DNA of 64,000 nucleotides, from positions 6,095-70,094 of the forward strand of contig CAZJNH010000006.1 of the NCBI GenBank assembly GCA_964547425.1, written 5' to 3'. Made by a program: the position numbers and the translations under genes. This document shows, one piece after another, positions 4,308-51,557 of the stretch (position 1 is the first letter of the stretch; every line of letters begins with the position of its first letter). A model generated the notes under the pieces. That model made no database searches. It was given only the letters and a program-made list of their open reading frames with translations, and was not told the origin of the DNA. The stretch comes from an uncultured Candidatus Saccharibacteria bacterium. Its GTDB lineage: Bacteria > Patescibacteriota > Saccharimonadia > UBA4664 > CAZJNH01.

Positions 4308-4532
4308 TTAGTTGTTGTGTCTATAAGTAATTCGGCCTTTGGTCAGGTCGTAAGGGGTCATCTCTAAGGTCACCTTATCTCCCGGCAAAATCTTGATGTA
4401 ATGCATCCGCATTTTGCCCGAGATATGTGCTAAAACAACATGGCCGTTCTCGAGTTCTACCCTAAACATAGCGTTTGGCAGGGTTTCGCGAACGGTCCCT
4501 TCGACCTCGATTACTTCCTTTGTATCACTCAT
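4308..4532 (-). CDS. infA: Translation initiation factor IF-1
   Basis: ORF track gives 95 aa, but the conserved IF-1 sequence starts at the internal [14 protein letters not shown]…; the S1-like fold gives 74 aa. Confidence 0.9.
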
Positions 4533-4551
4533 GGTAAGACTACAGCGCTTA

Positions 4552-4580
4552 ATTCTACCCAGATTTAGTACTCCTGTAAA
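4552..4580 (-). promoter_or_regulatory. Sigma-70-like promoter upstream of infA-rpmJ-rpsM…
   Basis: minus strand TTTACA-17 nt-TAGAAT about 20 nt upstream of infA ATG. Confidence 0.45.
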
Positions 4581-4598
4581 GACTTTTAAATACAAAAA

Positions 4599-4633: not shown

Positions 4634-5149
4634 TTACCGTGTTTGATTGATCCCTTCTCCGCCTCCGTGCGGATGCCCGATACCTTGACCCGTGCTAAGC
4701 AATAAGCCATGAAACGCTCGGTTGCCCCTAGCGTCCGCCAGCGAATTATGCGTCGCCCCTTCGGGCACCGGCTTATGGGTGACGCCGAGTCGGTTGGCCC
4801 AAGGCTTCAGATCGTTTGCGTAGCTGGGCCAGGTGGCTGGCCGGTCGATCATCCGCCCAAACAAGCCGCATAGGACGACCCAGTCGTAAGCGCAGACGTA
4901 GCCCCAGAACTCAGGGTCGTGGTCGTTTCTGACGAATTCCTCAACTTCTCGGGCAATAAGGATTGCCGTCTTTGATTGGCCTAACAGGTGCGGTCTGGTG
5001 TTTTCGGCGTGCCAACCATCGAAGTCCAGCGACCAGTCAACCTTGGCGAACTCCGCGTAGTACTCGCGGTCGTCCTCACTGACGATCCCGAGACTAATCG
5101 GCACCGGCTGAATGTAGTCGATGAACTCTGTGTCGAAGAAGTACTTCAT
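4634..5149 (-). CDS. DEDDh-type 3'-5' exo(ribo)nuclease, Rv2179c-like family
   Basis: 171 aa; N-terminal MKYFFDTEF (exo motif I DxE) characteristic of the Rv2179c-like 3'-5' exoribonuclease domain; ATG overlaps the stop of the upstream HD gene (ATGA). Confidence 0.55.
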
Positions 5150-5760
5150 TGCTCACCAGTGATGCGTTTGGCGCCTGTCCAGGCGTCGTCGTTGCGCGGG
5201 AAGTCGTAGAACGCCCTCGCGCTAAGAAGATCGCAGCTGTGGCACAACGCCGCCAGCGGCAGCATGATCCGAGAATCCGGCGTGTAATCCTCGTCGCGGA
5301 TGCCTTCGACGTACTTGAGGGCGTTTTCCTGCGTCGGCGTCAGCTTAATCCCGTACTCCCAAAGCTTCGACTGCGCAAACTCTTTACGAGCCGCTTTTGT
5401 CTTCAGCTCCGGAATCACGACCAACTCACCGTCCTCAAACCGCGTGCGCCACGGCTTCTCGATGTCATGGAGGAACAAGACGAGCAGACCGTCGGACAGT
5501 GTGATTCGCTCATCGCCCGACAACTGATCGAGTCGGCCTGTACTCTCGATTGCGCCGTAGAACAACACGAACCAGTTCATGGCGTCGGTGACATGGTCCC
5601 AGTAACCACCGGGCCAAGCCTGGTGGTTGTGCGTCGATCCCGGCGCCGCCTGGAACAGCTCGCGGTGGTCGTAGAGGATCTGCCGGCAGACCGATTGGTT
5701 CGGCTCGTTGATCATCATCACCATCTCGTCAAGGTAGTAGTACTTCGGCTGTTCGCTCAT
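5146..5760 (-). CDS. HD-domain phosphohydrolase (start trimmed to MSEQPKYYYL…)
   Basis: H…H (STHNHQAW) … LFLHDIEKP … D pattern of an HD domain; AAGGGAG RBS 4 nt upstream of the internal ATG; the ORF track's longer N-terminus overlaps the hairpin repeat and purB. Confidence 0.45.
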   Translation of the reverse strand: MSEQPKYYYLDEMVMMINEPNQSVCRQILYDHRELFQAAPGSTHNHQAWPGGYWDHVTDAMNWFVLFYGAIESTGRLDQLSGDERITLSDGLLVLFLHDIEKPWRTRFEDGELVVIPELKTKAARKEFAQSKLWEYGIKLTPTQENALKYVEGIRDEDYTPDSRIMLPLAALCHSCDLLSARAFYDFPRNDDAWTGAKRITGEQ

Positions 5761-5784
5761 GCCGCTCCCTTGGTTTGGTTGAGG

Positions 5785-5815
5785 CGGCCCGGGGAGTCTT
5801 TGTTCCCCGGACCGC
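5785..5815. repeat. 31-nt GC-rich hairpin repeat, copy B
   Basis: CGGCCCGGGGAGTCTTTGTTCCCCGGACCGC, 1 indel versus copy A; sits just after the purB stop and before the HD gene RBS. Confidence 0.6.
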
Positions 5816-5821
5816 TCGAAG

Positions 5822-7270
5822 TTAGAACGAGACACTCGAACTGGAAGTGTCGGGATTGAGCGCGCTCCCGCTTGATGCTGAACCAGCATTGCCATCGAGA
5901 TAACGCTGCCATTTCGCGGCGATCTCTTGAGCCCTCTCGTACGCCAGCCCAATGTACGGGTTGGCATTTTCGATCAAGGCAACTTCATCGGCCGTGAAGC
6001 GCTCCACATACCCGGCGATCTCCAGGTCTTCCTGAATGAAGCGTTGGAGTGAACGCGGATTACCGGTCCGACGAGCTTCGCGCCAGGCCTGCGTAACCAC
6101 GCGAACGGCTTCATGCGCGTCCGGGTGGCCGTACTTGGCGAGCAGAATATACAGCGGCTCCGCCAGTATGGCGCCCTCGCTGGAGGCAAGGTTCCGGTCG
6201 AGGTTCGTCTGGTCGACACGCAGCTTGTCCATTGTGCGTGTCAGCCGCTTGGCCATCACCACTACGTAGTTGACGATCTCGGCGTTAGTCCGGCCAGACG
6301 CGGAGCCAGTGAGGTCGCGCTGATGCTCGCTGATTTGATCCAGGTACAGCGTGCCCAGTCTGCCAACGAGAACCTTCCACATACTTTCGATGTTCTCGAA
6401 GTTGATCGGGTTGCGCTTCTGCGGCATCGTCGACGAACCTACTTGTTCGGCGCCGAACTCCTCGCCAACCTCGGCGATCTCGGTCCGCTGCAGGTTGCGC
6501 ATGTCGCGTGCCAAGTTCGCCATCACCCCAGCCGCCACGACCATCTCGGTCAGTAACCGCAGCATCGGCTCCGGCGGCGCGATCTGGGTCGAATGAGTAG
6601 CAGGTCGCAGACCAACGTAACTCAACAATCGTCCCTCGAACTCCATCGGGTTGTCGACGACAAGCTGCGACGCGTTGTAAGCCCCAACCGCGCCAGAGAA
6701 CTTGCCGACCAACTCAGAAGCCCTCTCATCGATCCTCTTGATCGACTGACCCAAACGCTCGGTGATCCCGGCCATATAGAAGCCGAAGGTGATCGGAACG
6801 GCGTGCTGGCCATGCGTCCGGCCAACCTGCACCGTCGCCGACTCCTGCCGCGTGATGTCGACCAGTATTCGCAGTAGTTTCTTGAGAGCCGGGACGACAA
6901 CGTCGTAGGTCACGTCCTTATACCTCGCGGCGTTGGCTGTGTCGACGATGTCGAATGAAGTAGCGGTCATGTGCACGTAAGGCTTGGCTTCGTCGCTGAC
7001 CTTGGCTTGGATGCAGTTGACCAAGGCCCGGATGTCGTGGCGAACCCGATCCTCCTCGGCGTAGACCTCTTCGGTTGTAATCTTGGAGCAGGCCTGGGCG
7101 ATCTCGAAGGCGGCTTCAGCCGGACAGATGCCGAAGTCCGCCAGCGTTTTTGCCAATGATGATTCGACCCCCAGCTTGTAGCGGGTAAAACCGTTCTCAG
7201 ACAAACATTCCGCCACCTCTGGGTCGAGGTAACGGTAGTCGGCCGGCGAAATCGCGTCGAATTTGTCCAT
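5822..7270 (-). CDS. purB: Adenylosuccinate lyase
   Basis: 482 aa; fumarate-lyase signature GSSTMPQKRNP; has an unusual 25 aa Ser/Gly-rich C-terminal tail. Confidence 0.9.
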   Translation of the reverse strand: MDKFDAISPADYRYLDPEVAECLSENGFTRYKLGVESSLAKTLADFGICPAEAAFEIAQACSKITTEEVYAEEDRVRHDIRALVNCIQAKVSDEAKPYVHMTATSFDIVDTANAARYKDVTYDVVVPALKKLLRILVDITRQESATVQVGRTHGQHAVPITFGFYMAGITERLGQSIKRIDERASELVGKFSGAVGAYNASQLVVDNPMEFEGRLLSYVGLRPATHSTQIAPPEPMLRLLTEMVVAAGVMANLARDMRNLQRTEIAEVGEEFGAEQVGSSTMPQKRNPINFENIESMWKVLVGRLGTLYLDQISEHQRDLTGSASGRTNAEIVNYVVVMAKRLTRTMDKLRVDQTNLDRNLASSEGAILAEPLYILLAKYGHPDAHEAVRVVTQAWREARRTGNPRSLQRFIQEDLEIAGYVERFTADEVALIENANPYIGLAYERAQEIAAKWQRYLDGNAGSASSGSALNPDTSSSSVSF

Positions 7271-7271
7271 A

Positions 7272-8333
7272 TCAGCTCCTCTTGAACTTTGAGGTCATCT
7301 CGGCAACCTCGGCGTAGTTCTGCTTAATCTTGCCAAGCTCCTTGGCCTTGGCCGCTGGATCGTCGACACCAGCGAGGTCGCGATAGACCTGCTTGTCCTT
7401 CATCTGCGCCTTGTCGCCGCCCGGCCAGATCCGCCACGAGTCGTTGTCGATCACATCGGCAACGGCCAGCCGGCCGTCGTGCAAGCGGCCGAACTCGATC
7501 TTGAGATCGACCAGTTGGACTTCCTGCTGCCGCCAGGCGTCTTCGATGACCTCGAAGACCTTCACGGTTGTTCGCACCATCTCGACCGTCTCATCGATGG
7601 TTTGCTGCGCCCTGACCGGCAGGATGGGCTTCTCTTCGATGTAGCCCACGCCGAGCGGCTTACCGGCCTCGTATAGCAAGTAGCGCCAGCCGACAAAGTC
7701 CCAGATCATTAGCGGATCGTGGCGCTCGTCGTCTTTGAGGAAACACTCGACGACGAGCGGGGCGAGCACCGTGCCTTCGGCAACTTCTCGGTTGCGCTTT
7801 AGGTACGAACCGGTGGCGATGCGCCGGGCCACCCACTCCATTGGCAACATTTCTGCCTTGAGCGCGTGGAAAACGGTTGGGTCGCTGTCGTCGGGCCCAA
7901 GGTAGTGCGTCAGCACGTGCGGGTCGATCAGCTCGAAGACGTTGCAGGTCGTCCGCGTGGCATTGACCGCCTTATCTTCGAGCAAATCACGGCTCGCGCC
8001 GTCGCCGGCGGTGATGTCGTTCTTGCTCTCGATCATCACCCGCTCTCTAACACGGGAGGATGAATCTGGGTGTTCCCAGATGATCTTCGTCTTCCCTTCC
8101 GCCAACTTCCAGGGCAGCCGTTCAACTTCGATGTTGCTGTATTTCTTCAGCCAAATCGGCTCTTCCTGTTCAGAAACGTAGACAGGACAAATCCCCGGTC
8201 CGTCGTTGCCTGATGAGCCATCCGGAGACATTACCGGCCGACTGACGGTGAAGGTCTTCCCCTCGTGCTCGAACCGGTCGCCTTGGCGCATGCCGTCATC
8301 GGTAACCGTCCAAGTCTTATATGTGGCAACCAT
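7272..8333 (-). CDS. purC: Phosphoribosylaminoimidazole-succinocarboxamide (SAICAR) synthase
   Basis: 353 aa; SAICAR synthetase family similarity; start 2 nt upstream of the purB start. Confidence 0.85.
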   Translation of the reverse strand: MVATYKTWTVTDDGMRQGDRFEHEGKTFTVSRPVMSPDGSSGNDGPGICPVYVSEQEEPIWLKKYSNIEVERLPWKLAEGKTKIIWEHPDSSSRVRERVMIESKNDITAGDGASRDLLEDKAVNATRTTCNVFELIDPHVLTHYLGPDDSDPTVFHALKAEMLPMEWVARRIATGSYLKRNREVAEGTVLAPLVVECFLKDDERHDPLMIWDFVGWRYLLYEAGKPLGVGYIEEKPILPVRAQQTIDETVEMVRTTVKVFEVIEDAWRQQEVQLVDLKIEFGRLHDGRLAVADVIDNDSWRIWPGGDKAQMKDKQVYRDLAGVDDPAAKAKELGKIKQNYAEVAEMTSKFKRS

Positions 8334-8390
8334 AATTGCCTCCTTGTCAAAGGTCGAAACAAAATCAGCGGCCCGTTGCCGCTCGCGTAG

Positions 8391-8396
8391 ATTATA
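8391..8396 (-). promoter_or_regulatory. Perfect -10 (TATAAT) of the purC promoter
   Basis: minus strand …TCCGGTATAATCTACG… about 55 nt upstream of the purC ATG; AAGGAGG RBS; a weak -35 falls in the terminator T-run. Confidence 0.4.
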
Positions 8397-8416
8397 CCGG
8401 ATTTTTGATACGAAAA

Positions 8417-8447
8417 AACCCGGGCCGTGGTTGGCGCCGGGTTTTTT
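8417..8447. terminator. Bidirectional intrinsic terminator
   Basis: AAAAAACCCGGGCC-gtggtt-GGCGCCGGGTTTTTTG; an A-run and a T-run flank a GC hairpin. Confidence 0.7.
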
Positions 8448-8459
8448 GTGAACGAGCTT

Positions 8460-8922
8460 CGCTGACGAACGCAGCCAGATGCGGCTGTTTTAACTTACCC
8501 GCTTTCTCTGTCGACTCTTTCATCCGGCTTACGCCGTGCCGAGTAGCCGATACACTCGACTTTAGGCTCCCTATTTATCGCTGGGCTTTGTTCACTGGAA
8601 CCATGCGCACGTTGTGCGCGGCGGGTATATTTTACCCAGTGTCTTTGTACCATCCAGCGAGGAGCTATCGTTTGCCCATCGGAATCACCCTTTCGGCTGA
8701 AGCGATGAAGCGGAACGAAGCGATGGTCTCGGGACCCACCGTTTCGTTCCTAGAATAGAACCGAACCACGTACCCGAGAAGTACATCCTCTCTAACTGGA
8801 CGGAGCCAGTTTAACGGGAGGAGAGGAGGGCTCCCAACGACGTCGCGGTGATCTGCTACTCGTCTTGCTGCGACTGCAATATGGTGGCCCAAGTGGCCTG
8901 ACGAACCGCGCTCTTGCGCATG
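8460..8922 (-). ncRNA. Candidate non-coding RNA (orphan transcription unit, identity unknown)
   Basis: Bounded by the strong promoter at 8929..8957 and the terminator at 8417..8447; no ORF with an RBS or plausible composition; rich in internal hairpins; RNase P, tmRNA and SRP signature motifs were not found by eye. Confidence 0.3.
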
Positions 8923-8928
8923 ACGAAG

Positions 8929-8957
8929 AATATACCCGCCATAACCACTTCTGTCAA
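8929..8957 (-). promoter_or_regulatory. Strong sigma-70-like promoter
   Basis: minus strand TTGACA-17 nt-TATATT. Confidence 0.55.
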
Positions 8958-8961
8958 GAAG

Positions 8962-9040
8962 TTGTAATTCGCTAACCTGAAAAGGGTTACACCCTTAACA
9001 GATTGGAAAATTACAAGTTTTGGGAAAATTGAGTCAAATT
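8962..9040. repeat. 80-nt intergenic repeat, copy 1 (partner 51477..51557)
   Basis: about 90% identical to 51477..51557; contains the AAGGGT-tac-ACCCTT hairpin and the TTTGACTCAA core (minus strand); starts 2 nt after the stop of the 9043..9375 gene. Confidence 0.7.
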
Positions 9041-9042
9041 GG

Positions 9043-9375
9043 CTATTCGAGGTCGAAGGCGAGGAGACCTTGGGTGGCGATTTTTTCTTTGTAGCCTGGA
9101 AAACTGTAGTAGATTGCTTCAGCTTCTTTGAGGGTTTTGGTGCCGGGCATGATAGTTTCTTGCGGGATCGTATCGAGCAGGGATTTGATGTCGGAAAAGT
9201 GCTGGACGGACTTTACGGTCTTCATCGCCGAATCTTTGCCACAAACGACGGTGATTTTGTCACCGGCCTTGACTACCTGGAACTTAGAGGTTGCGGCGCG
9301 AGTTTCCACGCTTTTTGTGCCATTGACGACACTATCAAACTTATCTCGATCGACTTCGCGGAACCGGAGGATCAT
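9043..9375 (-). CDS. ASCH (PUA-like) domain protein
   Basis: 110 aa; N-terminal MILRFREVDRDKFDSVVNGTKSVETR resembles ASCH-domain N-termini; abuts secY. Confidence 0.45.
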   Translation of the reverse strand: MILRFREVDRDKFDSVVNGTKSVETRAATSKFQVVKAGDKITVVCGKDSAMKTVKSVQHFSDIKSLLDTIPQETIMPGTKTLKEAEAIYYSFPGYKEKIATQGLLAFDLE

Positions 9376-10689
9376 CTAGTACTTTTCGTAGGAGGTCATG
9401 ACGGCTTGGGACTGGATTTGGTTCATTGTTTCGATGGCGACCGAGACGACAATCAACAGACCGGTACCGCCGATGGTCAGTAGTGTGCGGTTGGTAAGTC
9501 TTTGCGCTATGAATGGTAAGAGCGCGATCACACCAAGTCCGGCAGCTCCGGCGAGGGTAATGCGGTTAACGACGCGGCGCAGATAGCTGGCGGTTTCTTT
9601 GCCAGGACGAACGCCGGGGATGAAACCACCTTGTTTTTGGAGGTTTTCGGCGATATCGTCAGGGTTAAATACGACCGAAGTATAAAAATACGTGAAGATC
9701 ACGACCAACGCGAAGTAGCTAACCGCGTAGACCATGCTGGTCGGTGAGAATAACGTACTGGCGCGCTGGGCGATCGAAGCAATGTGTGCGCTGTGGGCCT
9801 TGGCAAACAGCTGTCCCAAAAAGCCTGGAACAGATAGAAACGCAAGGGCAAAGATGATAGGAATAACACCCGCGAGGATGACTTTTAGCGGCAAATGAGT
9901 TTCGACTCCGCCATAGACGCGGCTGCCTCTGACCCTGCGCGCGTAGGAGACCGGGACATTCCGCTGGCCTTCGTTAAGTAACACCACGAAGGCGATAACT
10001 ACCACAGTCGCGACCGCGAATAAGATCAACTGCAGCGACGTGCCGCTATCGGTCTTCGCTAACTGAATGAACTGGCCAAACTGGGACGGTAAACGCGAAA
10101 CGATTCCGGCAAAAATAAGCAGCGAAATACCGTTGCCGATACCTTGCTCGGTAATAATTTCACCAATCCACATTAGCAGTAAGCTCCCGCCGGTGATCGC
10201 CGAGATCATAACCACCCATTGGAATAGATCCGGATGGCCGATGAGGTCAATTTGGAGCTGGCTTTTACTGGCCTGCTGAATCAGAAAAACCATACCGAAC
10301 GACTGCAAGATAGCCAGAGGTACGGTTAAAAGCCGGGTGTATTGGTTAATCTTCTGCCGCCCGGCTTCCCCTTCCTTACTCAAGGCTTCCATCTGAGGGA
10401 TCACCTGCTGCATCAGCTGCATAATAATTGAGGCGTTAATGTACGGCGCCACACCCATCATGACGATCGAGAAGCTGGTTAAAGCTCCCCCAGAAAATAA
10501 ATCGGCAAAGCCAAGCAGCTGGTTCGAGGAAAACAGTCGTTGCAGGAAGTTGGCTAAAGCCGCGTTGTCAGGAACCGGCACCGGCACGTGGGCCAGCAAT
10601 CGGAATAAAATCAACAAGGCGCCGACGATTAACAGGCGCTTTCGGAGCATCTTGGACCGCAGGATCTGTTTGATGCTGGCTAAATTCAT
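9376..10689 (-). CDS. secY: Preprotein translocase subunit SecY
   Basis: 437 aa polytopic membrane protein after rplO. Confidence 0.95.
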   Translation of the reverse strand: MNLASIKQILRSKMLRKRLLIVGALLILFRLLAHVPVPVPDNAALANFLQRLFSSNQLLGFADLFSGGALTSFSIVMMGVAPYINASIIMQLMQQVIPQMEALSKEGEAGRQKINQYTRLLTVPLAILQSFGMVFLIQQASKSQLQIDLIGHPDLFQWVVMISAITGGSLLLMWIGEIITEQGIGNGISLLIFAGIVSRLPSQFGQFIQLAKTDSGTSLQLILFAVATVVVIAFVVLLNEGQRNVPVSYARRVRGSRVYGGVETHLPLKVILAGVIPIIFALAFLSVPGFLGQLFAKAHSAHIASIAQRASTLFSPTSMVYAVSYFALVVIFTYFYTSVVFNPDDIAENLQKQGGFIPGVRPGKETASYLRRVVNRITLAGAAGLGVIALLPFIAQRLTNRTLLTIGGTGLLIVVSVAIETMNQIQSQAVMTSYEKY

Positions 10690-34653: not shown

Positions 34654-35322
34654 CTAACTGAGCGTGGCTGTTTTAAACTTGGCTCGGTAGATGCAATACC
34701 CGCAAGTGCTCGACTCAAGAGGTAACTCACCGCCCAGAACCTCAGATATTTCGTCAATGAAACCGTAGAATGCTGGCATATCAGCTATTACCTCGCGGAA
34801 AATCGGCTTTGACCTAAAGAATGCATATCCTTTGTGGTATCGAACATCTTGCGGTTGGATTACCAAAAGCCCCATCCTCGAAATCTGTTTAGGCTCGCCT
34901 ACCGCAGGATTCTCATGTGCAAATTTATAGGCGTGTAGCTGCCTGTCGTATTTAGCTAGACTTTCCGCGCTAGGATCGGTGATCTTCAAATCCAGTACGC
35001 CATACGTTCCGTCATCGAACTTAGTCAAAAGGTCGAATCTGCCATTTAGGTAGCAGTCTAGCTTGTTGGGTATTGGCTTTGATTTTAAAAAACCTTCTTG
35101 AGAGTCGAACTTCCCAGACGGCAATTCAGAAATTATGTCACTTAAATTGTGCTGCAAAGCCATCGTCTGGAGCTGACTGTTCATCTTCGTAAAGATTGAC
35201 GGGAAAGGCGTGCTTGGAGTGGTTAGGGCATTTACAACTTTCTGGTAGTAACAGTGTTTACAGTCTTCCCAGAGAAACTTAAAGTCCGACGGACTAAGCT
35301 TATATTTGGCTGGGCTATTCAT
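34654..35322 (-). CDS. PD-(D/E)XK-like nuclease with a split Cys4 (CxxC…CxxC) metal site
   Basis: 222 aa; …FDLLTKFDDGTYGVLDLKITD… (D…DLK); Cys pairs CKHC and CGYC; the stop abuts the helicase stop (TAGCTA). Confidence 0.4.
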   Translation of the reverse strand: MNSPAKYKLSPSDFKFLWEDCKHCYYQKVVNALTTPSTPFPSIFTKMNSQLQTMALQHNLSDIISELPSGKFDSQEGFLKSKPIPNKLDCYLNGRFDLLTKFDDGTYGVLDLKITDPSAESLAKYDRQLHAYKFAHENPAVGEPKQISRMGLLVIQPQDVRYHKGYAFFRSKPIFREVIADMPAFYGFIDEISEVLGGELPLESSTCGYCIYRAKFKTATLS

Positions 35323-35591
35323 AGTTTGAATTCATCCTTAAATTTCCTTGATCGAAACTTAGTCTTAACTTCTGTGATGCGTTTTTCTATCGTTGCGAAA
35401 ATCTTTTCAACGTCAGCCTCGTCGTAGCTGTATAGTGTTTTATTGCCGGTATTACCTAACAGTCTCAGGTCATTTAGAATCCTATTCGTACGTTTCTCGG
35501 CAACTCGAACAAAGCGCTCCCGTCTTGCTTGGGGTGTATAAAGCTCTTTTCGATCAATCTCTTCTTCACTCATAGAAGATATATACCACAC
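35319..35591 (-). CDS. Small charged helical protein
   Basis: 90 aa; ATGA overlap with the downstream nuclease-like gene. Confidence 0.4.
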   Translation of the reverse strand: MWYISSMSEEEIDRKELYTPQARRERFVRVAEKRTNRILNDLRLLGNTGNKTLYSYDEADVEKIFATIEKRITEVKTKFRSRKFKDEFKL

Positions 35592-35788
35592 TATCTATGT
35601 ATATACAACGGGCTGGATAGAGTTAGCTAAAATTGTAGTTCTTGACGTATAACTATTGACCAGTTTACAAACGGCGACTAGGATAAAAGTAAATCGCCGC
35701 ACGAGAATTTGAGCCTCAGATACGACGATTTACGCTGACGATTTTTTTCGTCTTCTCCATACTAACTAATTGCTCAAGGAGGGTAAAG

Positions 35789-35980
35789 ATGAGTGTTTTT
35801 TGGCTATACCGACGCGCCGATAGGGACATCGGCTGGAGACTCCGAGATGGCAACCAGAAAATAATTGCTATTTCCGGTGAAGGCTTCAAGACAGAGACCT
35901 CGGCGCGTAACTCAATCGCTAATGTGAAGCTTGAAGCACCTCGTGCCGAGATAAAAACTTCGGACAAGTCGCCTATTTAA
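35789..35980 (+). CDS. YegP-like (DUF1508/UPF0339) small protein
   Basis: 63 aa; FWLYRRADRDIGWRLRDGNQKIIAISGEGFKTETSARNSIANVK matches the YegP repeat pattern; AGGAGG RBS. Confidence 0.55.
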   Translation: MSVFWLYRRADRDIGWRLRDGNQKIIAISGEGFKTETSARNSIANVKLEAPRAEIKTSDKSPI

Positions 35981-36082
35981 CCGCAAGCAAGGATTACCAC
36001 TGACGGATTATGTCCTGAGACGGTTTTCTTAAATCTTGACGTTCGTATTTTGTTCTATTATGATAAGATAAGCATAAGATCC

Positions 36083-37030
36083 ATGAGGAGTAATATAGAT
36101 AATCAAATACTGTGCGAGGATTGTGTGGAAGGGCTGGCTACAATCCCTGCGAACTCAATTGACGGCTGTATTGCTGACCCTCCTTATAACTACGAGTTTA
36201 TTGGTCATAAATGGGATGCAGAAGAAATAAAAAGAAGGGCAGCTAAGGCCAAGGACTCTACTACCTTAGTTAAGAACATTCCGTACGGTAGCGGTCTGGC
36301 AGGTGGTGTACGGAATGAGAGGTGGTACCAAAAGAATGCCGAGAACATCAATGACTATAGGAAGTGGACTCGACAGTGGGGTGAACAGGTGTTAAGGGTG
36401 TTAAAACCTGGGGCATATATCCTGGTTTTTAATAGCTCCCGCACGATTGCACACGTTCAGGTTGCGCTCGAGGAAGCTGGCTTCTATGCCCGAGATACCC
36501 TCGTGTGGAGAAGGCATTCTGGAATACCTAAAGGCCTAAACTACGCTAAAAAAATAGCTAAGGAAGACGCCTCAAGAGCTAGAGGGTGGAATGGTTGGCA
36601 CAGCTGTTTACGCAATGAGTGGGAGGCTATAGCAATGCTTCAAAAGCCTCTGGAGAATAACTACATGGAAACCGTCAAGAAGTACGGGGTCGGTCTTCTT
36701 CACGCCGAGGACGCTTTTGGATTCAAGTCGAATATTTTCGAAGGAATTAAGCGAGACAAGAAGGATAGCTTTAATGTCCACTGCACGGTTAAGCCGGCTG
36801 ATTTAATTAAGCAGCTTATCGATCTTATTATTCCAGCCCATAAAGGCGCCATCGTACTGGATCCCTTTATGGGTTCGGGTACAACAGCAGTCGCGGCTAT
36901 AGAGAGCGGTATCTCCTACTTAGGGTATGAAATTAATCCTGAATATTGCGAAATCGCAAAAGAGCGTGTAAATAAGATGGCAGCAACGAGCTCACCTCTG
37001 AACCGTAAAGCTCCCCTTAAGCTTTTTTAG
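36083..37030 (+). CDS. DNA methyltransferase, amino-MTase beta class (N6-adenine or N4-cytosine)
   Basis: DPPY (motif IV) near the N-terminus and FMGSGTT (motif I) near the C-terminus; ORF track start 36050 is TTG, the first in-frame ATG is 36083; TTGACG-17-TATGAT promoter at 36036..36064. Confidence 0.8.
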   Translation: MRSNIDNQILCEDCVEGLATIPANSIDGCIADPPYNYEFIGHKWDAEEIKRRAAKAKDSTTLVKNIPYGSGLAGGVRNERWYQKNAENINDYRKWTRQWGEQVLRVLKPGAYILVFNSSRTIAHVQVALEEAGFYARDTLVWRRHSGIPKGLNYAKKIAKEDASRARGWNGWHSCLRNEWEAIAMLQKPLENNYMETVKKYGVGLLHAEDAFGFKSNIFEGIKRDKKDSFNVHCTVKPADLIKQLIDLIIPAHKGAIVLDPFMGSGTTAVAAIESGISYLGYEINPEYCEIAKERVNKMAATSSPLNRKAPLKLF

Positions 37031-37552
37031 ATATTGCTCTAAATCGAAGCTAGTTTTCTCTTTTATATAAGCAAAGGCGTCGGGTCCAACGTAAAGTGTC
37101 CAGCCACCAACACGACAAGCACCAAGTGCTGCGGGCAGATTATCTTCTCTTAAGATAAGTAATACGGGACGAAACCCCTGCCCCTTGAGCATTGCTCCGT
37201 ATTGTTTGAATTTCTTAAGCGTACCAGAATCCCCAGATCCTATACGGTACTTAGTGTCAATGGCATCTTTGCCTACGAACATATCGGTTGGTTCGTCTGC
37301 TTCTACTTTAATTGCCGGCAAATAATCTGCACACTTCAATTCGCACAACCTATCGATGAGTAATTGCCAGCACATACCTAGCTCTCTGCCCCAGTACTGC
37401 CTGTTCTCTCGTTTTATCTCAGGAGTTATATTGAAAATATCCATTAGCAAATCGTGGTCATTGTTTTCTTCGCCGTACGCTTTATCGGAAAATGATCCTG
37501 CATACTGGCTGATGATCTTCTTTAGCTCGATATCTAAATCTTGTTGTGTCAT
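36992..37552 (-). CDS. Putative Type II restriction endonuclease (PD-(D/E)XK-like)
   Basis: 186 aa from MTQQDL…; …EADEPTDMFVGKDAIDTKY… fits PD…D-x-K; convergent with the MTase and overlaps it by 39 nt. Confidence 0.45.
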   Translation of the reverse strand: MTQQDLDIELKKIISQYAGSFSDKAYGEENNDHDLLMDIFNITPEIKRENRQYWGRELGMCWQLLIDRLCELKCADYLPAIKVEADEPTDMFVGKDAIDTKYRIGSGDSGTLKKFKQYGAMLKGQGFRPVLLILREDNLPAALGACRVGGWTLYVGPDAFAYIKEKTSFDLEQYLKKLKGSFTVQR

Positions 37553-37569
37553 TTTTTGCACTTTTAGCA

Positions 37570-37596
37570 AAAAGCCCAGTTAAGGGCTTTTTGTGG
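37570..37596. terminator. Bidirectional intrinsic terminator after rpsJ
   Basis: AAAAAGCCC-agttaa-GGGCTTTTTG. Confidence 0.7.
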
Positions 37597-37947
37597 CTAC
37601 ATTATTGTCTTTATCTCAATATCCACACCCGCCGGGAGGTTTAGGGCCATTAGGGAGTCGATGGTTTTTTGGTTGAACTCGGTGACGTCGATCAAACGTT
37701 TGTGGGTGCGTTGCTCGAACTGCTCCCGGCTGTCTTTGTAGATGTGCGGGCTGCGCAATACCGTGAACTTCTGTTTCTCGGTGGGCAACGGAATCGGCCC
37801 GGCCACCTTGGAGCCATTGCGAATAGCGGTATCTAGAATCTGCTTGGCCGACTGGTCGATAATTTTGTTATCGTAGGCCTTCAGGCGGATCCTGATGCGC
37901 TGCTTGGGCTCTTCTTTGGTGGTTTCGGGCTTCTTATCTTCTGCCAT
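37597..37947 (-). CDS. rpsJ: 30S ribosomal protein uS10
   Basis: 116 aa; …[10 protein letters not shown]… S10 signature; follows tuf. Confidence 0.95.
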
Positions 37948-37982
37948 ATTGAGTAAGGTGCGAGGAGGTATCTAGCTCCTAA

Positions 37983-39158
37983 TTATTTGATGATCTTAGA
38001 GACTACGCCAGCTCCTACGGTTTTGCCGCCTTCGCGGATGGCGAAGCGTAGGCCGTCTTCCATAGCGATCGGGGAGATCAGTTTAACTTTAACCGATACG
38101 TTGTCTCCCGGCATAATCATTTCAGTTCCTTCTGGCAGTTCAACTTCGCCGGTGACGTCGGTGGTGCGAATGTAAAACTGGGGCTTGTAGCCTTTGAAGA
38201 ACGGGGTGTGGCGTCCGCCTTCATCCTTTTTCAGAACGTAGATTTCGCCTTCAAATTCGGTGTGAGGAGTAATCGAACCGGGCTTTGCAAGCACCTGGCC
38301 GCGCTCGATGTCGTCGCGCTCAACTCCGCGGAGCAGTACGCCAACGTTGTCGCCGGCTTGCGCGTCGGGGAGTAATTTGCGGAACATTTCTACACCGGTA
38401 ACGACGGTTTTCTTGGTGGCGCGAATACCAACGATTTCAACTTCGTCGTTAACGGCCACTTTGCCGCGCTCAATCCGGCCGGTGGCAACAGTACCACGAC
38501 CTTTGATCGAGAAAACGTCTTCGATCGGCATTAGAAAAGGCTTGTCGACGTCGCGGGTTGGCTCGGGCAGTTCATCTAGAGCCGCAACCAGTTCGTGGAT
38601 ACTCTTCTCATACTCGGCGTCGCCTTCAAGAGCCTTTAGGGCGGAACCCTTGATGATGGCGGCTTTGTCGCCGTCGTACTCGTATTTGGAGAGCAGTTCG
38701 CGAATTTCAACCTCAACCAGTTCGGCTAGTTCAGGGTCGGCCATGTCCATTTTGTTCATGAAAACTACGATGTGAGGCACACCAACCTGGCGGGCGAGGA
38801 GAATGTGCTCGCGAGTTTGGGGCATCGGGCCGTCGGCAGCCGAAACAACTAGGATAGCGGCGTCCATCTGGGCGGCGCCGGTAATCATGTTCTTAACGTA
38901 GTCGGCGTGGCCAGGGCAGTCGACGTGGGCGTAGTGGCGTTTGTCGGACTCGTACTCCTGGTGGGAGGTGGCAATAGTAATACCGCGGGCTTTTTCCTCC
39001 GGAGCCTTGTCGATTTCGGCGTAGCTGGTGGCTGTTGCCTGACCCGACTTGGCGAGTACCGTAGTAATAGCGGCGGTTAAGGTAGTTTTGCCGTGGTCGA
39101 CGTGACCAATGGTGCCTACGTTGATATGGGGTTTTGTGCGAGTGTATGTCTCGGCCAT
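37983..39158 (-). CDS. tuf: Elongation factor Tu
   Basis: 391 aa; [18 protein letters not shown] motifs. Confidence 0.97.
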
Positions 39159-39351: not shown

Positions 39352-39361
39352 TATTCAAGCC

Positions 39362-39390
39362 TTGACAAAAGGCTTATGTTTGTGTATAGT
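39362..39390 (+). promoter_or_regulatory. Near-consensus promoter with extended -10
   Basis: TTGACA-17 nt-TATAGT preceded by TGTG; structured 97-nt leader with a CCAGTTC-gtat-GAACTGG hairpin; paralogous to 41156..41184. Confidence 0.6.
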
Positions 39391-39488: not shown

Positions 39489-39806
39489 ATGACTGCCGCA
39501 ACGCTTCGCAGCACGATGCCTCTTCGCAGAGGCCCGTGGAGCTACGCCATCGTCTCCGGCCCCTCTCGCGAGGAGCTGTTCGATGCCCTCCGTTTGAGCG
39601 AGGAGAACCGCAAGGTCAAACTCGTGATTACGTACTGCAAGCCGGGAGAGGTTGGCGCCGAAGTCGAGATCCTGGTCTACATCGACCAGATCGGGCGCGC
39701 CAACAACTTCGGATCGGCCTGGGTGTTCCATGCCACGCTCGGCGATCAACCGCTCATCGGGTCATACAACACCCAAAAGCGCCTCGGTACGATCGCACCG
39801 AGCTAG
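39489..39806 (+). CDS. Hypothetical protein (105 aa)
   Basis: AAGGAG RBS 7 nt upstream of ATG; followed by a terminator. Confidence 0.55.
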   Translation: MTAATLRSTMPLRRGPWSYAIVSGPSREELFDALRLSEENRKVKLVITYCKPGEVGAEVEILVYIDQIGRANNFGSAWVFHATLGDQPLIGSYNTQKRLGTIAPS

Positions 39807-39859
39807 AGCCCGCAACAAGCTTCAAAAGTTGGAGCCGCAGTTGCGGGCTCCTTCTTTTT
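39805..39859 (+). terminator. Intrinsic terminator (duplicated at 40277..40331)
   Basis: GAGCCCGCAAC…GTTGCGGGCTC followed by CTTCTTTTT. Confidence 0.65.
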
Positions 39860-39893: not shown

Positions 39894-40250
39894 ATGCGGC
39901 AGCTTTTCGTTATTGTCTTGGCGAAAGGAGCACGAGTGAAACTCAAGCAGCACTTTGGGCAAACGGCGGTCGGTCTGATGTTGATCAGCATGACTGCCTG
40001 GATGGGTACCATCCTCCTGGCACTGGGTGTCGAAAAGGGTCACTTCGAACGTCAGGCAACGCTGCCGTACCTCCTCCTTTTCTTCGGTTTCGCGGTCATC
40101 ACCGAGATGGGGATGATCGCGGTCGAGTGCCAGGCAGGCGTTCACAACGTGATCGCCCGAAAGCACAACAAGAAGCTTCCGCCTTGGGAGCGGCCGGGCT
40201 GGCGTTGGTCAGCCAAGGACATCGACGAGTGGTACGCACAGTACCACTAG
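39894..40250 (+). CDS. Small membrane protein (2-3 TM)
   Basis: 118 aa; hydrophobic helices. Confidence 0.5.
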   Translation: MRQLFVIVLAKGARVKLKQHFGQTAVGLMLISMTAWMGTILLALGVEKGHFERQATLPYLLLFFGFAVITEMGMIAVECQAGVHNVIARKHNKKLPPWERPGWRWSAKDIDEWYAQYH

Positions 40251-40276
40251 AGCCTCTGTACGATCGCACCGAGCTA

Positions 40277-40331
40277 GAGCCCGCATCAAGCTTCAAAAGC
40301 TGGAGCCGCAGTTGCGGGCTCCTTCTTTTTA
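40277..40331 (+). terminator. Intrinsic terminator, second copy
   Basis: GAGCCCGCATC…GTTGCGGGCTC followed by CTTCTTTTT; about 78 nt including upstream flank duplicates 39783..39860. Confidence 0.65.
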
Positions 40332-41051: not shown

Positions 41052-41155
41052 GTTTCCCTCGCTTTCGTATTAGTTTAGCCCGCCCGATGTCATAATTATA
41101 TCGAACAAGAAGCGAACAGGCAAGCCAGTCTAGTCACGGATCGACACGATTTGTC

Positions 41156-41184
41156 TTGACAAAACCCTTATGCTTTGGTATACT
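41156..41184 (+). promoter_or_regulatory. Near-consensus promoter, paralog of 39362..39390
   Basis: TTGACA-17 nt-TATACT; the leader has a CCAATC-aaca-GATTGG hairpin and the same GAAAGGAGCAG RBS block. Confidence 0.6.
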
Positions 41185-51418: not shown

Positions 51419-51434
51419 CCTGGTACCAAAAAAA

Positions 51435-51472
51435 AGCCCGGGGAATACACCCCCGGGCTTTTCCCTTTTTTT
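51435..51472. terminator. Bidirectional intrinsic terminator
   Basis: AAAAAAAAGCCCGGGG-aatacac-CCCCGGGCTTTTCCCTTTTTTT. Confidence 0.8.
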
Positions 51473-51476
51473 GAAC

Positions 51477-51557
51477 CTTGTAGTTCGCTAACCTGAAAAG
51501 GGTTACACCCTTAACAGATTGGCAAATTACAAGGTTTTGGATTTTTGAGTCAAATTT
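51477..51557. repeat. 80-nt intergenic repeat, copy 2
   Basis: about 90% identical to 8962..9040; abuts the ABC-F stop codon. Confidence 0.7.

Follow-up and report, generated by a model that had tools for sequence, protein, structure and literature searches.

C-rich small RNAs such as RsaE/RoxS carry an exposed C/U-rich loop able to pair with Shine-Dalgarno sequences. The RNAs OLE, GOLLD, ROOL, raiA and HEARO are large, structured, non-coding bacterial RNAs of the 0.3–0.8 kb class from isolated lineages. For the ultra-small, host-dependent Saccharibacteria and their relatives almost nothing is known, to our knowledge, about regulatory or structural RNAs, and a literature search for non-coding RNAs of this group yielded nothing. 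The unit described here, an ORF-free stretch of ~505 nt upstream of purC–purB, resembles OLE, GOLLD, ROOL, raiA and HEARO in size class, in being non-coding and in its isolated lineage, but it gives no covariance-model match and shows no ornate conserved structure, its folding z being modest. It shares a predicted exposed C/U-rich loop with RsaE/RoxS, although no Rfam RsaE match was detected in the window, and its length is several times that of typical trans-acting sRNAs. Leader riboswitches of the purine, ZTP and PRPP/ykkC types are comparable in that the unit also lies upstream of purC–purB and ends in a terminator; however, it matches no aptamer, such a leader would measure 590 nt, and the unit is not conserved upstream of purC in relatives. 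The orphan bacterial non-coding RNA genes are matched in their own near-consensus sigma-70 promoter, their own Rho-independent terminator, the absence of an ORF and the intergenic site in a variable region, with the difference that the unit has no homologue in the loci searched. We would class it as a so far unverified addition to the wide range of orphan bacterial non-coding transcription units.

Genomic Context of the Unit

The window, which is the whole 64-kb stretch of DNA analysed, stems from a Patescibacteria genome of Saccharimonadia type; it has its nearest SecY matches (86–88% identical) in uncultured genomes, and the source names of more distant SecY matches (67–70% identity) are Saccharimonadia or Saccharibacteria. 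The surroundings of the unit are a ribosomal-protein cluster in which every gene lies on the minus strand, as shown in Table 1, where the ribosomal proteins and RpoA were assigned by size and by synteny with the related locus L008. The gene-free interval that holds the unit is the biggest non-coding gap within the window, which is tightly packed elsewhere. The purC–purB block (5100-8333) has a GC content of 0.58–0.60, the window maximum, versus ~0.53, the best relative of PurC reaches only 60% identity, and the block has no close relatives; because of this composition and the absence of close relatives, the block was probably acquired horizontally. The PurC of the window also carries a unique N-terminal extension of ~75 aa, where several relatives instead have an N-terminal PurE domain fused to PurC. 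A decayed PurE domain in the interval was considered and rejected, as tblastn of five PurE–PurC fusions aligned the PurC part only. The break of Logan contig L001 at 8583 was likewise considered as a variant junction, and low coverage is the likelier cause since the other end of the contig also lies inside a gene. Logan sample SRR9179562 contains the organism.

Table 1. Features of the secY–infA region and of the repeats discussed in the text, with their positions in the window.
Feature	Position	Strand	Remarks
rpsE, rplO (upstream side of the locus)		minus	before secY in gene order
secY	10689..9376	minus	Pfam PF00344, precomputed
ASCH-like gene	9375..9043	minus	110 aa; weak ASCH/DUF3850 Pfam match and 15 real homologues
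79-nt repeat, copy A	8962..9040	minus	starts at the ASCH stop codon
Gene-free interval	between ASCH-like gene and purC		709 nt
Promoter P1	8929..8957	minus	-35 TTGACA (8957-8952), 17-nt spacer, -10 TATATT (8934-8929)
Predicted primary transcript	8413..8921	minus	~505–510 nt; inferred from P1 and T1
12-nt perfect inverted repeat	left arm 8620-8631, right arm 8929-8940		GGCGGGTATATT / AATATACCCGCC
C/U-rich tract	8816..8830	minus	CCCUCCUCUCCUCCC
Strongest internal hairpin	8712..8750	minus	15-nt arms, 87% complementary
Terminator T1	8413..8447	minus	bidirectional; A6, GC-rich stem, T6
purC control region	8339..8396	minus	TATAAT, T2, Shine-Dalgarno
purC	8333..7272	minus	Pfam SAICAR_synt, 4e-43
purB	7270..5822	minus	Pfam
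ORF without assigned family	after purB	minus	~204 aa
Rv2179c-like exonuclease	after the ~204-aa ORF	minus	171 aa; Pfam
infA (IF-1)	4595..4308	minus	Pfam
rpsM, rpsK, rpsD, rpoA, rplQ	after infA	minus
79-nt repeat, copy B	51478-51556	minus	directly after the ABC-F stop

Promoter, Terminator and the purC Control Region

The sequence-only reading had proposed an orphan minus-strand transcription unit without an ORF, running from a TTGACA-17-TATATT promoter to a clean bidirectional terminator about 500 nt away, and both signals are present. P1 agrees with the sigma-70 consensus at 11 of 12 positions and adjoins the hairpin of copy A of a 79-nt repeat. Sites with at least 11 of 12 matching positions number seven in the window, versus 0.53 in composition-preserving block shuffles (~13-fold enrichment), and most of the other six lie directly 5' of genes, such as rpoB (61600) and the ribosomal-protein cluster (19246). 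On account of this enrichment and of these positions P1 is more than a chance match: the organism uses consensus sigma-70 promoters, and a chance origin of P1 is unlikely. The predicted start, A8921, lies 8 nt past the -10 hexamer and is also the A of an ATG that opens a 21-codon frame, while the predicted 3' end falls in the U-tract of T1. T1 is a strong terminator ~505 nt from P1. Its two 11-nt arms pair perfectly; an A6 tract precedes the first (8413-8423) and a T6 tract follows the second (8437-8447). The hairpin scan of the minus strand detected nothing else resembling a terminator between P1 and T1.

Downstream of T1, purC has a perfect TATAAT at 8396-8391, 55 nt 5' of its start, and a Shine-Dalgarno sequence AAGGAGG (8345-8339) 5 nt ahead of the ATG at 8333. 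The earlier proposal that purC restarts from its own TATAAT stands as far as the hexamer goes; its -35 matches poorly, and T2 (8383-8367), another hairpin resembling a terminator, intervenes before the Shine-Dalgarno sequence. As the perfect TATAAT follows T1, purC need not depend on P1. The same layout could be read as a long 5' leader of purC–purB, in which P1 would be the operon promoter and T1, with T2, a regulated attenuator overridden by a metabolite, a protein or a translation event. P1 is the only near-consensus promoter upstream of purC, two tandem terminator-like hairpins stand just before the purC Shine-Dalgarno sequence, and purine operons of other bacteria are under leader riboswitch control, all of which would suit such a leader. 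However, no riboswitch or leader family, purine-related aptamers included, was matched by Rfam at E ≤ 10, no convincing antiterminator was seen upstream of T1 in a non-exhaustive inspection by eye, and the six purC loci taken from reference genomes have upstream gaps of at most 264 nt, with no long leader and no similar DNA. The cis-regulatory option of the sequence-only reading consequently finds no backing; the TATAAT after T1 and the lack of an aptamer match, of an antiterminator seen by eye and of a long leader in relatives favour an independent unit, and we consider the purC leader improbable.

Coding Capacity of the Interval

No protein-coding capacity is present between P1 and T1. Each of the six frames of the unit contains 6–9 stops and all three stop codons, for which reason no alternative genetic code rescues an ORF, and recoding of UGA or UAG as sense was ruled out. 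No AGGAGG-type Shine-Dalgarno sequence precedes any candidate start in the unit, unlike at purC. Codon usage was scored as log-odds after training on 34 long genes from the window, and the six frames over 8380-8960 all fell between -0.1 and -1.0, versus +0.35 ± 0.18 for real genes in frame (ASCH 0.44, purC ~0.29). The Arg-rich 75-aa frame starting with TTG (8892..8665) and the junk-like 140-aa plus-strand frame (8336..8758), the only ORFs noticed at first, exist as they were described, and both score as non-coding; the initial impression that nothing between promoter and terminator has a ribosome-binding site or a protein-like composition is in agreement with these results.

The ATG at the predicted start would also allow a leaderless mRNA that encodes a 21-aa peptide (MRKSAVRQATWATILQSQQDE, 8921-8856) at its 5' end and otherwise consists of a long 3' UTR. 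An ATG 8 nt after the -10 has leaderless geometry, an ASCH gene in a related locus is similarly arranged (TAAAAT-6 nt-ATG, described below), and the 21 codons score +0.27; nevertheless, the frame is too short for this score to carry meaning, no homologue of the peptide was found and the other 440 nt would have no explanation, so that such an mRNA is highly improbable.

Searches Against RNA and Protein Families

No match was obtained with Rfam 15 at the gathering threshold over the whole window, and runs with permissive filters at E ≤ 10 on 8250-9150 (901 nt) and 8440-8930 (491 nt) returned chance-level matches only, such as miRNAs, lncRNA fragments and terminator look-alikes. The covariance-model scan of the unit that had been suggested as a check thereby gave no known family even at E ≤ 10. 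ARAGORN found neither tRNA nor tmRNA in the whole window. These negative results agree with the earlier observation that signatures of RNase P, tmRNA and SRP RNA are missing. The RNaseP_bact_a/b models were unmatched at the gathering threshold and at E ≤ 10, and of the RNase P P4 strands (GGAAAGUCC ... ACAGAAnnnGGCUUA) inspection revealed AAAGUC and GACAGAG in the wrong order and without a P4 partner. The tmRNA-family, SRP RNA and 6S RNA models of Rfam were likewise unmatched on the unit at both thresholds; the 6S model misses divergent members, and the ~505 nt of the unit do not fit the roughly 185 nt of 6S RNA. A reduced or divergent housekeeping RNA (RNase P RNA, tmRNA, SRP RNA or 6S RNA), one of the identities offered at first, would account for the size and for the stand-alone promoter and terminator and for nothing else. 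Against it stand the Rfam result with permissive filters, the ARAGORN result and the absence of the unit, or of anything alignable to it, in relatives whose functional non-coding DNA still aligns, and such an RNA is effectively excluded.

The six-frame translations of the interval gave nothing in Pfam at E ≤ 10 and one chance-level holin match (E = 0.17) in PHROGs. The three longest open stretches had no credible match among 1.84 billion representative proteins, where the sole match, a 4035-aa Ig-repeat protein, was rejected as an artefact of weak per-repeat matches adding up. The ORFs of the interval were also absent from a collection of 15 billion proteins, searched for homologous DNA via miscalled genes, which means that no gene has been called here in the public records that the collection covers. 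A pseudogene of a known family was rejected on the negative six-frame Pfam and PHROGs searches and on a negative tblastx comparison with the cassettes of relatives, tests that a decayed gene never having known relatives would escape.

Folding of the Predicted Transcript

The 516-nt transcript with T1 has a minimum free energy (MFE) of -195.6 kcal/mol and a z of -2.95, compared with a z of -2.08 for its complement. Without T1, the transcribed strand reaches -174 kcal/mol (z -2.35) and the complement -165 kcal/mol (z -1.30). Among 24 background segments of the same length (mean z -0.49, sd 1.3), two reach the z of the unit, which places it in the top tenth. In 150-nt windows the region shows no advantage in folding over parts of the purC coding sequence, and with the modest z of the whole unit the initial description of an interval full of local hairpins was overstated. 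The strongest internal hairpin (Table 1) is present in the MFE and centroid structures alike, and a stem closing the 5' and 3' ends is also common to both, as is the C/U-rich tract. The predicted structures are only suggestive as evidence for the unit. The 3' part of the C/U-rich tract, CUCCCGUUA (8820-8812), is predicted by the partition function to be single-stranded (unpaired probability ~0.9) and resembles an anti-Shine-Dalgarno sequence; any function of the tract is speculative.

Repeats at the Locus

The two copies of the 79-nt repeat are 91% identical, and its 26-nt core occurs exactly twice versus zero expected. Each copy follows the stop codon of a minus-strand gene, the two genes being unrelated, and includes the palindrome TTGACTCAA and an imperfect hairpin of ~26 bp, whose z ranges from -3.8 to -7.5. 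On the minus strand copy A reads AATTTGACTCAA, followed by an imperfect hairpin of ~26 bp (arms 8959-8987 and 8991-9019), while copy B is directly followed by a bidirectional terminator (51432-51462). T1 resembles the terminator of copy B, with 4 of 300 shuffles scoring equally well. A partial second copy beside T1 was considered (TTCGCTGAC versus TTCGCTAAC) and dropped, the similarity being weak and not recovered by local alignment. The element shares with REP/BIME-like repeats a long imperfect hairpin that is repeated in the genome and placed after stop codons and before terminators; it differs in having two visible copies in 64 kb, and the REP units of E. coli are shorter. Its appearance is that of a 3'-end element of the REP kind or of a hairpin for RNase III-type processing or stabilisation, and the simplest account of both loci is a module of gene, hairpin repeat and terminator at ASCH and at ABC-F. 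At the ASCH locus, ~510 nt made up of P1 and the ORF-free body separate the repeat from the terminator.

The arms of the 12-nt perfect inverted repeat are 297 nt apart, the right arm includes the P1 -10 hexamer, and by our estimate chance alone would give ~0.02 pairs of this kind in 800 nt. The repeat could close a 321-nt domain in read-through transcripts of the secY operon, or it could be due to chance. A MITE or another small mobile element was rejected, the inverted repeat having no flanking target duplication and the 480 nt being single-copy in the window. Flipping the DNA between the arms, as in an invertible segment, creates no ORF, and no recombinase gene was seen among the scanned neighbours.

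Comparison with Related Loci

No homologue of the unit was detected in 94 related loci totalling 0.67 Mb, in phage and plasmid records or in viral contigs. The secY relatives fetched (loci L008-L011, L018 and L094) have different neighbours downstream of secY: a CYTH gene and a 261-aa ORF, then infA, in GCA_964478595.1, the relative with 88% identity; a minus-strand ORF at 87%; a 137-aa ORF, a promoter and a 71-aa membrane ORF at 86%; a DUF3850 (ASCH-like) gene and then infA directly at 80%; and DUF5674 at 75%. Neither nhmmer nor blastn detected DNA similar to 8331-9050 in these loci or in 76 metagenome secY loci, which are mostly relatives of ~50% identity. The comparison with the homologous interval of relatives, another of the checks suggested at first, therefore met other cassettes and no alignable DNA. 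The secY–infA interval is occupied by adk and map in most bacteria; in this clade it serves as a cassette slot and, to judge from the different small genes in each relative, a hypervariable one. The infA promoter and leader are alignable among the window, L012 and L094, at roughly 85–90% identity by eye, and for this reason a functional clade-wide RNA in the slot would have been seen. The absence of the unit in SecY relatives of 80–88% identity whose infA promoter aligns likewise means that the unit bears no sign of purifying selection. A gene of the ASCH/DUF3850 type recurs in the slot, in the window, L012 and L094.

Among the ASCH relatives L012-L017, an ORF-free unit was observed in L012 alone, a 1160-nt contig from Logan SRR21686408 that carries the closest ASCH homologue (69% identity) and ends in infA, which places it in the same slot. 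Positions 1-416 of this contig, upstream of its ASCH gene, comprise TTGACA-17-TATTTT, ~355 nt of GC-rich DNA without an ORF and a strong terminator, with a folding z of -4.25. This unit matches no Rfam family (a weak RsaE match has E = 3.4), and it has no sequence in common with the unit of the window, the local alignment score falling under the shuffle mean. The ASCH gene of L012 looks leaderless (TAAAAT-6 nt-ATG), and the promoter of its ORF-free unit is homologous to the promoter of L009/L018, which there precedes the 71-aa ORF and in L012 precedes ORF-free DNA. The parallel may indicate either that ORF-free units are recurrent and fast-evolving in the slot or that cassettes of the slot often decay.

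The second possibility extends to the window, where the 480 nt might be a non-functional relic, left over from an accessory cassette of promoter, small gene and terminator or from junction DNA of the purC–purB block, and perhaps still transcribed without function. Several observations are consistent with such a relic: every relative has another cassette in the slot; cassettes with their own duplicated promoters and terminators exist elsewhere in the window (39.3-41.6 kb); the promoter common to L009/L018 and L012 drives a 71-aa ORF in the former and ORF-free DNA in the latter; an ATG lies exactly at the predicted start and its frame ends after 21 codons; the purC–purB block holds the GC maximum of the window (0.58–0.60); and no collection searched contains a homologue of the unit. 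On the other hand, no frame retains coding bias, no similarity remains to protein families, to the cassettes that relatives carry in the slot or to PurE, the intactness of P1 and T1 argues against old decay, and useless DNA would be expected to disappear from genomes as small and streamlined as those of this group. A relic is, in our view, somewhat unlikely, and it remains the weightiest of the alternatives to an RNA gene.

Candidate Non-Coding RNA Gene

We tentatively prefer, at rather less than even confidence, to read the interval as a stand-alone, lineage-specific non-coding RNA gene. The core of the sequence-only reading, an orphan minus-strand unit free of ORFs, holds in that promoter and terminator are present and coding signal is absent; of the three identities it offered, the lineage-specific sRNA remains, and the housekeeping and cis-regulatory RNAs are unsupported. 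What tilts the balance from a relic to an RNA gene is that P1 and T1 are intact, that no frame keeps a trace of coding signal, that the transcribed strand folds better than its complement and that gene-free DNA is rare in this genome; the ORF-free unit of comparable layout in the same slot of L012 was also counted in favour. Counted against were the lack of a homologue in any collection searched, the lack of sequence in common with the L012 unit and the modest folding signal.

Under the RNA-gene reading, RNA polymerase with the housekeeping sigma factor would start at P1, probably at A8921, transcribe ~505 nt of ORF-free sequence and stop at the intrinsic terminator T1, and purC–purB would be expressed separately from the TATAAT at 8396-8391. 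The unit would have been inserted in the hypervariable slot between secY and infA, where it would have parted the 3'-end hairpin repeat from its terminator, beside an ASCH-family gene and the probably acquired GC-rich purC–purB block. The RNA is presumed to be made, to be stable and to act in trans; speculatively, its exposed CUCCC loop could pair with the GGAGG ribosome-binding sites that target mRNAs carry. The RNA might conceivably interact with the product of the adjacent ASCH gene as well, ASCH domains being PUA-like and predicted to bind RNA, reportedly, in the analysis of the ASCH superfamily by Iyer and Aravind. A wider conjecture, which we regard as a long shot, is that the slot houses, in this Saccharimonadia clade, a fast-evolving class of ASCH-linked non-coding RNAs of 0.35–0.5 kb, of which the units of the window and of L012 would be two examples, diverged beyond alignment and perhaps active via exposed C-rich loops or as partners of ASCH proteins.

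In genomes so compact, a gap of 0.7 kb that lacks a gene and yet has intact transcription signals is conspicuous. If real, the RNA would be among the very few candidate non-housekeeping RNAs of Saccharibacteria and relatives, and, taken with the unit of L012, it would mark a cassette slot beside secY as a place where such RNAs arise. If the interval is a relic, it would record the recent gain of purC–purB and the turnover of cassettes inside an otherwise rigid ribosomal-protein cluster. The practical consequence for annotation is small, since under either reading the unit is not a missing housekeeping RNA.

Additional Observations

Elsewhere in the window, an 87-nt 3'-end element containing a terminator is duplicated with 93% identity (39773-39859 and 40244-40330), and a promoter (CTTGACAAAAnnCTTATG...GTATA) is duplicated with 82% identity (39361-39388 and 41155-41182); these duplicates flank small genes without known relatives at 39.3-41.6 kb, and it appears that this genome copies regulatory cassettes to sites around accessory genes. 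In L015/L016, the gap upstream of a distant ASCH homologue (1904-2550) contains a tRNA gene followed by several repeats of its 3' end (AGCCCCATCGTTCG...), which are att-like and are the mark of one integration after another at the attachment site of a tRNA. A low-GC island at 35000-38000 of the window (0.43–0.46 versus ~0.53) holds an N6/N4 DNA methylase (36050-37030) and is probably a restriction-modification or mobile segment.
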